From Escherichia phage mobillu: 64,000 bases of DNA. The translations under genes and the position numbers were made by a program. The notes below the pieces were generated by a model. It was not told where the DNA came from. It did not search any database and saw only the letters and a list, made by a program, of their open reading frames with translations. The stretch is taken from sequence record MN850622.1; one strand, given 5' to 3'. Every line of letters begins with the position of its first letter. Positions within the stretch are counted from its first letter, which is position 1. Shown here piece after piece: positions 32,195 through 51,040 of the stretch.

Positions 32195-32230
32195 GTGCCA
32201 CGGAATGGCCCAAACCTTAAGAGAAATAAT

Positions 32231-32770
32231 ATGAGAACATTTTTAACTGGACCTTATCTATCCCTGATGAATGCTTTTACACACCATTCTGATGCTAGAG
32301 TAGAAGAAATTTGTAAGAACGGTTATGTCCCACCGTTTGAAGACGTACTCAAGCAGTACTGTACACTTCGTTTAGACGGTGGCCGACAATCAGGTAAATC
32401 AATTGCTGTGACTAACTTTGCTGCTAATTGGCTGTATGATGGTGGAACGGTTATTGTTCTTTCTAATACTTCAGCTTATGCTAAAATTTCTGCTGGCAAC
32501 ATTGAAAAAGAATTTTCTCGTTATTCTAGCGACGATATTCGATTCCGTTTATTTACTGATTCTGTTCGTAGTTTTATTGGCAATGAAGGTTCTAAATTCC
32601 GTGGATTAACGCTTTCTCGTATTCTGTATATAATTGACGAGCCTATTAAAGCTCCTGATATGGATAAGATTTACAATGTACATATTAAAACAGTCCAACA
32701 CTGTTGCAAAAACAAATATTGCAACGGCGGTATTGCTCGTCCTCAATTTTTTGTGATTGGAATGCAATGA
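32231..32770 (+). CDS. P-loop NTPase-like protein
   Basis: Walker A-like GGRQSGKS and Walker B-like LYIIDE. Confidence 0.6.
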   Translation: MRTFLTGPYLSLMNAFTHHSDARVEEICKNGYVPPFEDVLKQYCTLRLDGGRQSGKSIAVTNFAANWLYDGGTVIVLSNTSAYAKISAGNIEKEFSRYSSDDIRFRLFTDSVRSFIGNEGSKFRGLTLSRILYIIDEPIKAPDMDKIYNVHIKTVQHCCKNKYCNGGIARPQFFVIGMQ

Positions 32771-33075
32771 TGACCACTATTGAAGTTTTTGAATATTGTT
32801 ATAATAGCCCGGTATGCAATAAAAGGGCTCTTGTAGAAAATTATGAGATTTACCATTTTAAACCTAAACGATATCGTTTGACTAAAGGTCCGTTCGCAGG
32901 TCAGCAGGTTCTTTGTACTGCTCCTAATGCACGGTTGATGACTAGTATTCCACATTTCAAAATGGAATTTATTGATGGGCCATTTAAGGGATTAATCACT
33001 CAAAGTTTAATGGCGTTTAATTCCAACCCATTTTTGATTAAAGAAAAAACTTGGATAAATTTATTTTCTAATTGA
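32767..33075 (+). CDS. hypothetical protein
   Basis: 102 aa, ATG overlapping previous stop. Confidence 0.55.
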   Translation: MMTTIEVFEYCYNSPVCNKRALVENYEIYHFKPKRYRLTKGPFAGQQVLCTAPNARLMTSIPHFKMEFIDGPFKGLITQSLMAFNSNPFLIKEKTWINLFSN

Positions 33076-33081
33076 GGTTAT

Positions 33082-33444
33082 ATGAAAGCATATCAAATTC
33101 TTGAAGGCACACACAAAGGCACTATTTATTTTGAAGACGGTACTCAAGCCCGGATTATTGTCTCTAAGACTTTTAAAGAAGACGCTATTGTAGACCCAGA
33201 AATTTTCTACGGTTTGAATGCCCGTGAAATTGAAATTGAACATCAACCTAAAGTTAAAATTGAAGGTGGTCAACATCTGAACGTTAACGTTCTGCGTCGT
33301 GAAACTCTGGAAGATGCAGTTAAGCATCCGGAAAAATATCCGCAGCTGACCATCCGTGTATCCGGTTATGCAGTTCGCTTTAACTCTCTGACTCTGGAAC
33401 AGCAGCGTGACGTTATCGCTCGCACCTTTACTGAGAGTCTATAA
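33082..33444 (+). CDS. autonomous glycyl-radical cofactor (GrcA/YfiD-like; T4 Y06I-type)
   Basis: C-terminal [60 protein letters not shown] contains the RVSGYA glycyl-radical motif; host-like codon usage in this tract. Confidence 0.85.
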
Positions 33445-33668
33445 TGGCTAAATTGATTATAGAAGGGTCTGAAGATGTTTTAAAATGTTTTGCCGCCTGG
33501 TTTAGTTGCTCAGGCGAGCAATCATTCATTGAATCATTTAGAATGGGTGATATTACTGGAAACTATCCGACAACTGATATCACTGTACGTGGATATGGTA
33601 TTAATGAGCCTATCCAATTGGTCGAATATGACCTTGCCGCCGATGAGGAAATTCCTTATGTCGATTGA
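33444..33668 (+). CDS. hypothetical protein
   Basis: 74 aa ORF, ATGA coupling. Confidence 0.5.
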   Translation: MAKLIIEGSEDVLKCFAAWFSCSGEQSFIESFRMGDITGNYPTTDITVRGYGINEPIQLVEYDLAADEEIPYVD

Positions 33669-33924
33669 AGATATTAAAGGCTACAAGCCACATACCGACG
33701 ATAAAATTGGTAAAGTGAACGCTATTAAAGATGCAGAAGTCCGTCTTGGATTGTTGTTTGATGCTCTGATTGAAGAAGCATATATCTTGAAAGAAAATGA
33801 AACAGAGCAACAAACCAAAGAAGATATGGATGCAGTACAGGCTCTTAAGTATGCTAAGCAACATCTAAAAGAAGCCAGCATGTGGGCCTGTCGTGCAGTA
33901 TTTCGACCTGAGGAAAAATACTAA
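33658..33924 (+). CDS. hypothetical helical protein
   Basis: [15 protein letters not shown]...; the long track ORF from 33490 is an out-of-context extension. Confidence 0.5.
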
Positions 33925-35633: not shown

Positions 35634-36093
35634 AAACTATATCAAGGGCGATATTGTCGCCCTGTTTTCTAAAGGTAATAATATTGCTCATGGGTGTAAT
35701 TGTTTTCATACAATGGGCGCCGGTGTAGCAGGACAATTAGCAAAGGCTTATCCAAAAATTCTTGAAGCAGATAAACTTCAAACCGAATTCGGAGACAAGT
35801 CTAAACTCGGGACTTATTCGGTTTATGAAAAATATTTTAAGACCCATAAAGCTTATTGCTTTAATCTTTATACACAGTTTGAGCCGGGACCTAATTTTGA
35901 GTACTCTGCTTTAATGAATTGTATAATAGAATTAAATGAATTCGGAAAGAATAAGATAACAAAGCCTGTAATTTATATGCCAAGAATTGGTGCAGGTATT
36001 GGTGGTGGAAACTGGGATGTCATCGAAGAGATTTTAGATACGTATTCTACTAAACTAGAAATTGTGATTGTTGATTGGGAACCGTTATTATGA
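35626..36093 (+). CDS. macro-domain-like protein (candidate ADP-ribose binding/processing)
   Basis: GTG start 10 nt after GAGGA SD; GDIV...HGCNCFHTMGAGVAGQLAKA and PRIGAGIGGG resemble macro-domain glycine-rich loops; no ATG in the N-terminal region. Confidence 0.5.
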   Translation: MIKNYIKGDIVALFSKGNNIAHGCNCFHTMGAGVAGQLAKAYPKILEADKLQTEFGDKSKLGTYSVYEKYFKTHKAYCFNLYTQFEPGPNFEYSALMNCIIELNEFGKNKITKPVIYMPRIGAGIGGGNWDVIEEILDTYSTKLEIVIVDWEPLL

Positions 36094-36302
36094 ATATACA
36101 TTATCCACATCCATATGACCCAAAGAATAAGGCAGTAATTATTCGTCAATGGGAACGCATTTGTCGTACCAAATGTCCAATTAATAGTCCACATGATGTA
36201 GATAAAGACTACATCGGAACATTCGTTGAATATACCTTTATTGATAAGAAAGGCCGTAAACAACATGTAGAAGAATATTGCTTAAAGGTGACATGGCTAT
36301 GA
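36090..36302 (+). CDS. hypothetical protein
   Basis: 70 aa ORF, ATGA coupling. Confidence 0.5.
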   Translation: MNIHYPHPYDPKNKAVIIRQWERICRTKCPINSPHDVDKDYIGTFVEYTFIDKKGRKQHVEEYCLKVTWL

Positions 36303-48285: not shown

Positions 48286-48759
48286 ATGTTATTATCAGGC
48301 GCAAAATATAAAGAAGAAAAACAAAAATTTTATGATGCACAGAATGGTAAGTGTCCTATTTGCCACCGTGAATTAGACCCTGATGTTCAAGGTAACCATC
48401 TTGACCACGACCACGAATTAAACGGGCCAAAAGCCGGTAGAGTTCGTGGATTACTCTGTAATCTGTGCAACGCAGCAGAAGGCCAAATGAAGCATAAGTT
48501 CAATCGTTCCGGTCTTAAAGGACGTGATGTTGACTACCTCGAATGGCTTGAAGCTCTTCTTGCTTATTTGAAACAAGATTATTCTGATAATAATATCCAT
48601 CCTAATTTTGTTCCAGACAAAACTAAAGAGTTCTCAAGACTAGGTAAAGAGGAAATGATGGCTGAGATGCTTCAAAGAGGATTTGAATATAATGAATCTG
48701 ACACCAAAACACAGTTAATAGCTTCATTTAAGAAGCAGCTTAGAAAGAGTTTAAAATGA
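48286..48759 (+). CDS. 49: recombination endonuclease VII (Holliday junction resolvase)
   Basis: 157 aa; MLLSGAKYKEEKQKFYDAQNGKCPICHREL...HLDHDHELNGPKAGRVRGLLCNLCNAAEG near-identical to recalled T4 EndoVII. Confidence 0.96.
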   Translation: MLLSGAKYKEEKQKFYDAQNGKCPICHRELDPDVQGNHLDHDHELNGPKAGRVRGLLCNLCNAAEGQMKHKFNRSGLKGRDVDYLEWLEALLAYLKQDYSDNNIHPNFVPDKTKEFSRLGKEEMMAEMLQRGFEYNESDTKTQLIASFKKQLRKSLK

Positions 48760-50573
48760 CAATTGAAAAAGAAATTGAAGGATTGATTCATAAAACTAAT
48801 AAAGACCTTTTAAACGAGAATGCTAATAAAGATTCTCGTGTTTTTCCAACTCAACGGGACCTTATGGCCGGTATTGTGTCTAAACACATTGCCAAAAATA
48901 TGGTCCCGTCTTTTATTATGAAAGCGCATGAAAGCGGAATTATTCATTTCCACGATATTGATTATTCCCCTGCTCTTCCATTTACTAATTGCTGTTTAGT
49001 AGATTTAAAAGGAATGCTTGAAAACGGATTTAAGCTAGGTAATGCACAGATTGAAACTCCTAAATCAATTGGCGTTGCTACTGCAATTATGGCACAAATT
49101 ACTGCACAAGTTGCTTCCCATCAATACGGCGGAACGACTTTTGCTAATGTAGATAAAGTACTTTCTTCTTATGTTAAACGCACCTATGCAAAACATATTG
49201 AGGATGCAGAAAAATGGCAAATCGCTGATGCGTTGAATTATGCTCAATCTAAAACAGAAAAAGACGTATACGATGCATTCCAAGCTTATGAATATGAAGT
49301 AAATACTCTCTTTAGTTCAAACGGACAAACTCCTTTTGTAACAATTACATTTGGTACGGGAACTGACTGGACTGAACGAATGATTCAGAAAGCAATTCTG
49401 AAAAATCGTATTAAAGGTCTTGGTCGTGATGGAATAACTCCTATTTTCCCTAAGCTTGTTATGTTCGTTGAAGAAGGCGTTAATCTTTATAAAGACGATC
49501 CGAACTATGATATTAAGCAGCTTGCTCTAGAGTGTGCAAGCAAAAGAATGTATCCTGACATTATTTCGGTTAAGAATAATAAAGCTATTACCGGTTCTTC
49601 AGTTCCTGTTTCTCCAATGGGTTGCCGTAGTTTCTTGAGCGTATGGAAAGATTCAACCGGTAATGAAATTCTTGATGGTCGCAATAATCTTGGTGTTGTA
49701 ACATTGAATCTTCCTCGTATCGCGTTAGATTCTTATATTGGAACACAGTTCAATGAACAGAAATTTGTTGAGCTATTTAATGAACGAATGGATCTGTGTT
49801 TTGAAGCCTTGATGTGTAGAATTAGTTCCTTAAAAGGAGTTAAAGCAACTGTTGCTCCTATTCTTTACCAAGAAGGTGCATTAGGGGTTCGTCTTAAACC
49901 TGATGACGATATAATTGAGTTATTTAAAAACGGTAGAAGTTCAGTGTCTTTGGGATACATTGGTATTCACGAATTGAATATTCTTGTCGGTCGTGATATT
50001 GGGCAAGAAATTTTAACTAAAATGAATGCTCATCTTAAACAGTGGACTGAAAGAACCGGATTTGCTTTTAGTTTATATTCGACTCCTGCTGAAAACCTTT
50101 GTTATCGCTTCTGTAAACTTGATACAGAAAAATATGGAAGTGTAAAGGATGTCACTGATAAAGGCTGGTACACTAATAGTTTCCATGTTTCAGTAGAAGA
50201 AAATATTACTCCGTTTGAAAAGATTTCTCGTGAAGCGCCATATCATTTCATTGCGACAGGTGGTCACATTTCTTATGTTGAACTTCCTGATATGAAAAAT
50301 AACTTAAAGGGTCTTGAGGCCGTGTGGGATTATGCTGCACAACATTTAGATTATTTTGGTGTTAATATGCCAGTGGATAAATGTTTTACATGCGGAAGTA
50401 CTCATGAAATGACTCCCACTGAAAACGGATTTGTTTGTTCAGTTTGTGGAGAAAGTGATCCTAAAAAGATGAACACCATAAGAAGAACATGCGGTTATTT
50501 GGGAAATCCGAACGAACGAGGATTTAATCTCGGTAAAAATAAAGAAATCATGCATAGGGTTAAACACCAATGA
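48756..50573 (+). CDS. nrdD: anaerobic ribonucleoside-triphosphate reductase, intronless
   Basis: 605 aa continuous ORF; C-terminal Cys cluster CFTCGSTHE...CSVCGE and glycyl-radical region. Confidence 0.95.
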   Translation: MTIEKEIEGLIHKTNKDLLNENANKDSRVFPTQRDLMAGIVSKHIAKNMVPSFIMKAHESGIIHFHDIDYSPALPFTNCCLVDLKGMLENGFKLGNAQIETPKSIGVATAIMAQITAQVASHQYGGTTFANVDKVLSSYVKRTYAKHIEDAEKWQIADALNYAQSKTEKDVYDAFQAYEYEVNTLFSSNGQTPFVTITFGTGTDWTERMIQKAILKNRIKGLGRDGITPIFPKLVMFVEEGVNLYKDDPNYDIKQLALECASKRMYPDIISVKNNKAITGSSVPVSPMGCRSFLSVWKDSTGNEILDGRNNLGVVTLNLPRIALDSYIGTQFNEQKFVELFNERMDLCFEALMCRISSLKGVKATVAPILYQEGALGVRLKPDDDIIELFKNGRSSVSLGYIGIHELNILVGRDIGQEILTKMNAHLKQWTERTGFAFSLYSTPAENLCYRFCKLDTEKYGSVKDVTDKGWYTNSFHVSVEENITPFEKISREAPYHFIATGGHISYVELPDMKNNLKGLEAVWDYAAQHLDYFGVNMPVDKCFTCGSTHEMTPTENGFVCSVCGESDPKKMNTIRRTCGYLGNPNERGFNLGKNKEIMHRVKHQ

Positions 50574-51040
50574 ATTATGATAGATTTTATCCTTGCGATT
50601 TTGTGAATGGCCCTGGTTGCAGGGTCGTTCTTTTCGTTACAGGTTGTTTGCATAAATGTGAAGGGTGTTATAATAAATCAACATGGAATGCTAGAAATGG
50701 TATTCCATTCACTGGTGAAACACTAGAACAATTAATTGAATGTTTGAATAATGATTATATAGAAGGATTGACTATAACCGGAGGAGACCCTCTCTATCCT
50801 GACAACCGAGATGTTATTCATTGCATTGCTCAAACAGTAAAAAATCTTTATCCCAATAAAAGCATTTGGTTGTGGACAGGATATAAGTTTGAAGATATTA
50901 AACAGCTAGAAATGCTTAAATATGTTGATGTTATTATTGATGGGAAGTATGAGAAAAATCTTCCGACCAAAAAACTGTGGCGAGGATCAGATAATCAGCG
51001 ACTTTGGTCAAATACCGATGGGGTGTGGAAACATGATTAA
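50570..51040 (+). CDS. nrdG: anaerobic RNR activating protein (radical SAM)
   Basis: CxxxCxxC radical-SAM cluster motif GCLHKCEGCYN; coupled to nrdD. Confidence 0.9.
   Translation: MNYDRFYPCDFVNGPGCRVVLFVTGCLHKCEGCYNKSTWNARNGIPFTGETLEQLIECLNNDYIEGLTITGGDPLYPDNRDVIHCIAQTVKNLYPNKSIWLWTGYKFEDIKQLEMLKYVDVIIDGKYEKNLPTKKLWRGSDNQRLWSNTDGVWKHD

Follow-up and report, generated by a model that had tools for sequence, protein, structure and literature searches.

The stretch analysed here, referred to as the window, is the whole 64,000-nucleotide (nt) segment of Escherichia phage mobillu (sequence record MN850622.1), a Mosigvirus (RB69-type T-even phage). The element under study is an open reading frame (ORF) of the GrcA family at positions 33082..33444, the orthologue of T4 gene vs.6. 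Its two halves appear to have different histories. The first 60 codons belong to a phage lineage of grcA that has diverged far from the bacterial gene, and the 3' part, which encodes the glycyl-radical domain, is nearly identical in DNA to the chromosomal grcA gene of E. coli and was very probably copied from it. The features on which this reading is built are listed here with their coordinates and strand.

33082..33444, + strand: vs.6 orthologue (GrcA family), 120 amino acids (aa), taken from the ORF list.
33082..33261, + strand: N-half, codons 1-60, a diverged GrcA N-terminal homologue of phage lineage with phage codon usage.
33262..33432, + strand: putative host-derived tract core of 57 codons, encoding the glycyl-radical domain; it matches E. 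coli grcA at 167 of 171 nt.
33364..33366, + strand: codon of Gly95 in RVSGYAV, the glycyl-radical site predicted by alignment to YfiD (6owr) and PflB (1h16).
33397..33399, + strand: private Pro106->Leu change (CCG->CTG) within the tract, present in this phage only.
33433..33444, + strand: phage-type 3' end, consisting of the last three codons and the stop (GAG AGT CTA TAA), which marks the 3' junction.

A BLASTN search of vs.6 against 5426 complete E. coli genomes finds a grcA match in all 5426, and this match covers only bases 133-363 of the query, at 90% identity. When the gene is aligned by codons to E. coli grcA, the last 60 codons (33262..33441), hereafter the tract, differ at 7 of 180 nt (96.1% identity; 3 of 180 in T4), and the first 60 codons are about 53% identical. 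The tract begins at the EGGQHL codon, codon 61 (33262). A maximum chi-square scan places the breakpoint just before 33260, where identity rises from 53% on the 5' side to 96% on the 3' side (chi2 = 85.8, a value reached in 0 of 2000 permutations), in agreement with the break near 33260 proposed by an earlier reading of the sequence alone (the sequence-only reading). At residues conserved between phage and host, identical codons make up 9 of 17 for the N-half and 53 of 59 for the tract (p = 0.0018). The 3' junction is as sharp as the 5' junction: the last two to three codons and all sequence past the stop are phage-type, all phages read differently from the E. coli GAA AGC CTG at the last three codons, and the flanks of the tract are unrelated to host sequence.

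Removal of these last three codons from the tract leaves a core of 171 nt, which is 97.7% identical to E. coli grcA in this phage, 99.4% in T4 and 171 of 171 in two phages from IMG/VR (L098 and L100); the core of this phage differs from E. coli at four positions, including that of P106L, and the core of T4 at one. The tract is thus closer to host grcA than the rest of the gene is to T4 vs.6 (90.6%). A megablast search with positions 25-50 kb of the window against all E. coli genomes has the tract (33260..33452) at the top of every listed record, and the only other feature listed is pflB. vs.6 therefore shows both marks of an intragenic recombinant of the type described for cyanophage psbA, namely a supported breakpoint and a segment closer to the host at sites that include synonymous ones.

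The gene itself is identified by its full length and by its position. The match to PHROG 1209 covers residues 1-120 of the 121 of the family (208.9 bits, E = 3.6e-62), and the T4 gene at the matching position is vs.6 (NP_049730, Y06I), which also encodes 120 aa with 93% protein identity. The local order is denV, vs.8, vs.7, vs.6, vs.5, vs.4 (Acb2/Tad1, 33658..33921), regB, vs.1, vs, tk.4 and tk, as in T4, and the gene order around vs.6 matches both T4 and the Mosigvirus vB_EcoM_SCS57. The full-length PHROG 1209 match and the position between vs.7 and vs.5/vs.4 place the gene in the T4 vs.6 orthologue group, so that the homology to Y06I named in the sequence-only reading can be stated as orthology. 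The closest record to the gene is that of SCS57 (99.4%), where the annotation reads 'autonomous glycyl radical cofactor GrcA', and 804 phage records cover at least 80% of it.

Pfam Gly_radical (PF01228) matches residues 59-101 (E = 3.9e-18), which bears out the assignment of the C-terminal 60 or so codons to a glycyl-radical module, and 59 of the C-terminal 60 residues are identical to the C-terminus of E. coli GrcA. The best match among solved structures is E. coli YfiD/GrcA (PDB 6owr; E = 5e-41, residues 21-120), and this settles the fold. It is followed by residues 696-759 of PflB, a pyruvate formate-lyase (PFL), at about 80% identity (E = 4e-26). Gly95 of vs.6 corresponds to Gly102 of GrcA and Gly734 of PflB, by computed position and by structure-sequence alignment. 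With a length in the range of about 120-127 aa and the RVSGYAV glycine, vs.6 is a small stand-alone glycyl-radical protein of the PFL type.

Codon usage was evaluated with the codon adaptation index (CAI), using 29 E. coli K-12 ribosomal-protein, rpoA and elongation factor (EF) genes (L093) as the host reference and the 105 other ORFs of the window as the phage reference. The tract has a CAI of 0.726 and a G+C content at third codon positions (GC3) of 0.40, the N-half has values of 0.49 and 0.24, and all other 60-codon segments of the 64 kb (n = 1311) average 0.403 ± 0.079 and 0.267 ± 0.070. None of the 1311 segments reaches the tract on CAI (z = 4.1) or on the log-likelihood ratio of host to phage codons (z = 4.6). 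The host-type codons noted earlier are therefore real, and the tract has the most extreme codon profile among the 60-codon segments of the window. Base composition behaves differently: the tract is no outlier on GC3 (z = 1.9), since 65 of the 1311 segments are as high. A plot of GC content and codon adaptation, which had been proposed as a check, is thus remarkable in CAI and log-likelihood and unremarkable in plain GC or GC3. The signal lies in codon choice because the codons that E. coli prefers often end in T.

The N-half has phage codon usage, as the sequence-only reading stated, but it is not unrelated phage sequence. An hhalign comparison of 10 phage N-halves with 20 host GrcA N-parts gives a probability of 94.1% (E = 1.3e-7) over 45 columns with 33% identity, a weak but significant homology to the N-terminal part of GrcA, and the alignments of TIGR04365 and 6owr to vs.6 start at residue 18-21. 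The phage-type N-half (MKAYQIL...GTIY...VSKT) is found in Tequatrovirus, Mosigvirus, Jiaodavirus, Karamvirus, Slopekvirus and Pseudotevenvirus. Its divergence tracks phage phylogeny, with nucleotide identities of 90.6% to T4, 75.6% to Karamvirus and 71.7% to Jiaodavirus. Behind this shared N-half, Karamvirus carries a phage-like tract with a GC3 of 0.30 and a synonymous divergence (dS, calculated by the NG86 method over the 171-nt core) of 1.5 to E. coli. This arrangement argues that a complete, ameliorated phage grcA preceded the arrival of the E. coli-like patch.

A full-length gene of this kind favors overwriting over the two other ways in which a host-like 3' half could have come about. 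The first is a fusion, in which a 3' fragment of host grcA was joined by illegitimate recombination to an unrelated phage ORF to make a new chimeric gene. The 5' junction does fall exactly at the start of the radical domain and the N-half has no nucleotide similarity to host grcA, both of which would be expected from such an event. The phage N-halves are nevertheless homologous to the N-half of GrcA by the hhalign result, the family and structure alignments extend upstream to residue 18-21, and Karamvirus and other genera join the same N-half to an old tract with phage codons, all of which makes a fusion very unlikely.

The second is a single ancient acquisition of the whole grcA gene followed by unequal divergence of its two halves, with purifying selection and convergence on shared optimal codons in place of any later recombination. 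It draws on the extreme conservation of the radical domain protein across hosts and phages and on the high-expression codons of the tract. The codons that are not optimal speak otherwise: the E. coli tract holds 18 non-preferred synonymous codons, and this phage shares 16 and T4 shares 17 of them. Host genera under the same constraints differ by 7-16% over the matching 180 nt. The identity to E. coli over these positions is 92.8% for Citrobacter, 83.9% for Salmonella and 84-87% for two Klebsiella sp. loci, and only another Escherichia is as near as 98.9%; over the 171-nt core, E. coli and K. pneumoniae are 87.7% identical. The grcA gene of K. aerogenes LR134122 is frameshifted and was excluded from the codon analysis. 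The core dS to E. coli is 0.00 for T4 and 0.07 for this phage, compared with 0.05 for Escherichia sp. MOD1, 0.38 for Citrobacter, 0.60 for K. pneumoniae and 1.13 for Salmonella, so that other host genera stand at 0.4-1.1. In Karamvirus, Slopekvirus and Pseudotevenvirus, an identical or almost identical protein goes with nucleotide identities of only 74-85%, and the match is specific to the host genus (E. coli versus K. pneumoniae). Unequal divergence is already contradicted by these observations and is highly improbable.

The host differences, the shared non-optimal codons and the low dS rule out convergence on shared codons in favor of descent, and the low dS to E. coli relative to other genera indicates a recent origin of the tract within the genus Escherichia. 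Transfer went from host to phage, because the tract has the high-expression codons of E. coli and because the tract and the N-part of the host genes jointly track the host tree. The mosaic formed by recombination with an enterobacterial grcA gene, which was the central proposal of the sequence-only reading, is thus supported by low tract dS, shared non-optimal codons and sharp junctions. Transfer from phage to host, or an assembly or contamination artefact from host reads, has nothing specific in its favor beyond the host DNA contained in phage lysates, and it is scarcely credible and already contradicted, since more than 600 independent phage genomes, T4 in GenBank X04567.1 among them, share these junctions, and since the tract has host codon usage and both parts of the host gene follow host phylogeny.

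Across 50,697 phage records searched, identity to the E. coli tract is bimodally distributed, with 638 records at 95% identity or above, 8 at 90-95%, 300 at 80-90% and 564 at 60-80%. The mosaic is therefore not peculiar to this phage and is a fixed feature of the T-even phages of E. coli, T4 included. Fixed differences were counted between four Mosigvirus-type and five Tequatrovirus-type copies. There are 13 in the N-half (180 nt; 7 synonymous codons), 0 in the tract core (171 nt; Fisher p = 2e-4 versus the N-half) and 28 in the downstream 120 nt, and the positions at which cores depart from E. coli are private to single phages or nearly so. L098 and L100, one a Mosigvirus and one a Tequatrovirus, have cores identical to E. 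coli with an N-half dS of 0.47 between them, and the flanking genes of this phage and T4 have dS values of 0.9-1.6. Together these values indicate that the last homogenisation of the core is much younger than the split between Mosigvirus and Tequatrovirus.

The Klebsiella Jiaodaviruses (JD18, OU509536; about 138 records) have a core with 95.3% identity to K. pneumoniae grcA (dS of about 0.2) and 87% to E. coli, and its distance to E. coli equals the distance between the two hosts. This core sits behind a Jiaodavirus N-half at the same two junctions, a pattern that identifies the Jiaodavirus tract as an independent host-derived replacement. In Slopekvirus KP27 the tract protein is of the K. pneumoniae type at 60 of 60 residues, in Pseudotevenvirus PF-CE2 it is of the E. 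coli type at 60 of 60, and the DNA identities of the two lie in the range of 81-85%; both tracts appear to stem from older events whose synonymous sites have since decayed. Two sets of candidates were rejected in the course of these comparisons. An apparent Yersinia-matched phage tract in IMG/VR (L125, 91%) is the host Yersinia grcA gene on a contig labeled as viral, and L166-L176 were set aside as what appear, by their non-phage N-terminal sequence, to be the 3' ends of host pflB genes.

The explanation preferred here, which is held with high confidence, is that vs.6 is the Mosigvirus orthologue of the T4 spare part, an old phage grcA whose 3' part was overwritten from E. coli grcA, as happened independently in Jiaodavirus. 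The 3' part, from 33262 to about 33434, would have been replaced by homologous recombination with the E. coli chromosomal grcA gene as the template, in a gene conversion or marker rescue. The event would have been a T4-type recombination between replicating phage DNA and fragments of the host chromosome, and the conversion patch would run to the limits of phage-host homology. Independent events would share their junctions because each patch ends where that homology ends. The replacement would be far more recent than the Mosigvirus/Tequatrovirus split, and the same replacement would have taken place independently in the Klebsiella Jiaodaviruses with K. pneumoniae grcA as the template. In T4 genetics, marker rescue from plasmid DNA that contains cytosine is a standard technique.

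Several points weigh against overwriting from the host gene. The evidence for the recombination event is all comparative. T-even phages degrade cytosine-containing host DNA, so the template should be scarce. Because both junctions are homology edges as well as a domain boundary, selection for a functional chimera and a purely mechanical conversion tract would look alike. For Mosigvirus and Tequatrovirus, the data fit independent conversions no better than a single recent capture from the host followed by spread of just the core from phage to phage. Host-matching is episodic and not universal, since the Salmonella grcA tract has no matched phage in the phage database (best about 84%) and Tequatroviruses whose isolation host was Yersinia, Salmonella or Citrobacter still have an E. 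coli tract (97-98%). Finally, vs.6 has every structural trait of GrcA, but its TIGR04365 score is 155.4 bits, just under the NCBIfam GrcA equivalog cutoff of 170 (E. coli GrcA scores 233.9), a shortfall that arises because the N-half is diverged; RefSeq nevertheless names the proteins of T4 and related phages GrcA.

A broader form of the preferred explanation, for which the chances seem about even, is that the radical-domain half evolves in concert with the host chromosome, the patch of about 175 nt having been re-copied repeatedly by T-even phages from the grcA gene of their current host. The donors would be E. coli for Tequatrovirus and Mosigvirus and K. pneumoniae for Jiaodavirus, with older, decayed events in Slopekvirus and Pseudotevenvirus. 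If true, this would be a natural and recurrent marker rescue in which phages draw on the very bacterial chromosome that they destroy, and a molecular record of recent host use, in which the spare part is possibly matched adaptively to the PflB and PflA of the host.

Allelic variation within the tract was also recorded. Tract position 39 is polymorphic in E. coli, with T in strain 1190 and C in K-12 (L179:301-483). Most phages have T, phage Nami (L177:501-683) and L101 have C, and L097 has G, a weak hint that different E. coli alleles may have served as donors. Nami (92.9%) is uninformative about alternative conversion endpoints, since it differs at scattered, mostly private positions, apart from the C at position 39, which is the K-12 allele.

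The function of vs.6 can be approached from its T4 orthologue. Y06I is activated by the PFL-activating enzyme and rescues PFL that has been cleaved by O2 (Wagner 2001, as cited in PMC8683613 and PMC13450708), and according to PMC13450708 the only validated spare-part proteins are T4 Y06I and E. coli YfiD, in both cases for PFL only. By analogy, the same mechanism is likely to hold for the protein of this phage, whose radical domain differs from that of GrcA only by P106L and from that of T4 Y06I at two residues. Position 106 is Pro in SCS57, T4, other close phages examined and all hosts, Ser in Jiaodavirus JD18, Lys in PflB, and Arg or Lys in the copies of T5-like and jumbo phages; P106L is probably tolerated, as Lys, Arg or Ser occur there in members of the family. 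The N-terminus of YfiD is described in PMC13450708 as disordered, aiding radical installation and dispensable afterwards, and this dispensability would fit the low constraint on the phage N-half. In the proposed mechanism, the host activase PflA would install the radical on Gly95, and the radical domain would then dock into host PFL that has lost its own radical domain to cleavage by oxygen, bringing PFL activity back. The output of acetyl-CoA, ATP and formate would in this way be kept up in a micro-oxic infection after the shut-off of host gene expression, and the formate could serve as the reductant for the phage's own anaerobic ribonucleotide reductase (RNR), NrdD. The genes of that enzyme lie outside the mosaic.

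48756..51040, + strand: nrdD (48756..50573; Pfam NRDD, E = 5.8e-171, and Gly_radical) and nrdG (50570..51040; Fer4_12 / Radical_SAM), given as context.

The distance of about 15 kb between vs.6 and nrdD/nrdG given in the sequence-only reading is accurate (15.3 kb downstream of vs.6), but the accompanying hint that this proximity bears on NrdD repair is not supported by the sequence. All strong matches of vs.6 are PFL-class enzymes, and a BLASTP comparison of vs.6 with the NrdD of the window gives a best E value of 7.6 with nothing aligned to the NrdD radical domain, so that the module is of the PFL type and not the NrdD type. A spare part for the phage's own NrdD in place of host PflB is accordingly very unlikely, even though NrdD is also a glycyl-radical enzyme cleaved by oxygen, its genes are in the same window, and two other phages have a grcA-like ORF inside the nrdD-nrdG cluster. 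Apart from P106L the module is identical to that of GrcA, it is about 80% identical to PflB 696-759 and it has no detectable similarity to NrdD; the validated spare parts (PMC13450708) and the rescue by Y06I concern PFL; and formate explains the linkage to nrd genes equally well. Class III RNR uses formate as its hydrogen donor (Mulliez 1995, as cited in PMC13450708). A metabolic link between vs.6 and NrdD through formate, which PFL makes and class III RNR consumes, is thus plausible.

The two clustered cases are found in a Salmonella phage and an Erwinia phage. In Salmonella phage 7t3 (L092:221-583) the grcA-like ORF lies directly between nrdD and nrdG and overlaps the start of nrdG, and in Erwinia phage pEa_SNUABM_47 (L181:2821-3183) it lies within the nrdD...nrdG cluster. 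The clustering in these jumbo phages suggests co-expression with the anaerobic RNR, perhaps through formate supply. In T5 (tRNA region) and in the Vibrio jumbo phage 2.275.O, the grcA-like ORF is outside the nrd cluster.

Compared with known systems, vs.6 agrees with T4 vs.6 in its position in the denV-vs-regB-tk cluster, its length and protein identity, and the same mosaic with its two junctions; the differences are 8 aa changes, 6 of them in the N-half, and neighboring genes with only about 77% nucleotide identity. It shares with E. coli GrcA/YfiD (TIGR04365; 6OWR) the C-terminal 59 of 60 residues at 96-98% DNA identity, a homologous N-region and the RVSGYAV motif. Unlike the bacterial protein, the phage protein is 7 residues shorter, has an N-half of about 33% identity with phage codons, scores 155 bits against the 170-bit cutoff and would be expressed from a phage early-gene cluster and not from the host grcA promoter. 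The other phage grcA-like genes (in Karamvirus, Slopekvirus, Pseudotevenvirus, Krischvirus, the T5-like Demerecviridae, and the jumbo phages 7t3 and Eneladusvirus) similarly encode 120-138 aa with a C-terminal radical domain of the PFL type, and the MKAYQIL...GTIY...VSKT N-half is common to those of Straboviridae, whereas their tracts are 72-85% identical to any host grcA and nearer to phage codon usage, as in old or decayed copies; those of T5-like and jumbo phages also have other N-halves and other genomic contexts. For cyanophage psbA and other auxiliary metabolic genes, PMC3900582 attributes patchy GC content to intragenic recombination between host and phage. The likeness to vs.6 lies in a host-derived metabolic gene in T4-like phages that exchanges segments with the host gene and has a mosaic composition. 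vs.6 differs in that its phage is a virulent coliphage that degrades host DNA, in that the block is a single domain-sized patch of 171-176 nt with up to 100% identity to a present-day host allele, and in that the patch has been replaced from two host genera.

The gene, its family and its biochemical function are thus already known, and intragenic recombination between host and phage has precedents in metabolic genes that phages carry, so that no new kind of system is involved. A literature search returned nothing on the grcA mosaic at nucleotide level or on the way it recurs matched to the host, which does not prove that it was never noted, and the recombination history of vs.6 appears to be unreported. 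It offers a clean natural case for gene conversion templated by the host in T-even phages, given a patch 97-100% identical to host DNA in phages that degrade host DNA and a Klebsiella version in a sister genus. The patch may also be usable as a marker of the recent host genus for uncultured T-even contigs. A 2026 study (PMC12845203) proposes grcA as a marker gene for Straboviridae in polymerase chain reaction (PCR) and quantitative PCR assays. Primers in the 3' half of grcA would also amplify the chromosomal gene of E. coli or Klebsiella and could give false positives, because this half is 96-100% identical to the E. coli chromosome and, in Jiaodaviruses, about 95% identical to K. pneumoniae. 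Read-mapping or decontamination pipelines may mis-assign the patch for their part. PLSDB 'plasmid' records of 0.3-5 Mb (L094, which is K. pneumoniae pVA126-339, L095 and L024) carry chromosomal genes such as grcA-srmB and appear to be chromids or pieces of chromosome that were filed as plasmids.

The immediate surroundings of vs.6 are compact, and the gene is preceded by one further feature.

33074..33077, + strand: Shine-Dalgarno-like GAGG, 4 nt 5' of the vs.6 ATG, read from the sequence.

This motif shares bases with the stop codon (33073..33075) that ends the upstream vs.7-like ORF, and the TAA of vs.6 overlaps the ATG of the downstream vs.5-like ORF (33444..33668). A scan of 31.0-35.5 kb for promoters and terminators finds sites no more often than in shuffled sequence, and vs.6 is therefore read as probably part of a denV-vs-tk early transcription unit, as in T4. 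Two genes 3' of vs.6, at the position of T4 vs.4, lies the Acb2/Tad1-family ORF (33658..33921, + strand; PF24729, E = 4.4e-18), with 66% protein identity to T4 vs.4. Acb2 and Tad1, the namesakes of PF24729, are anti-CBASS and anti-Thoeris sponges.

Similarity to T4 varies sharply across this region. The N-half of vs.6 has a dS of 0.35 to T4 at its 90.6% nucleotide identity, and the flanking vs.7, vs.5 and vs.4 (32767..33075 and 33444..33924) have dS values of about 1.0-1.5, with only 26% protein identity in vs.5. vs.6 is thus an island of T4 similarity that ends exactly at its stop codon, and the gene may possibly also have been exchanged between phages. Two more short islands with 90-98% identity to T4 are located at 32218..32532, in the vs.8-like ORF, and at 36043..36267, near tk.4/tk.3, in a neighborhood with a mean of about 77%.

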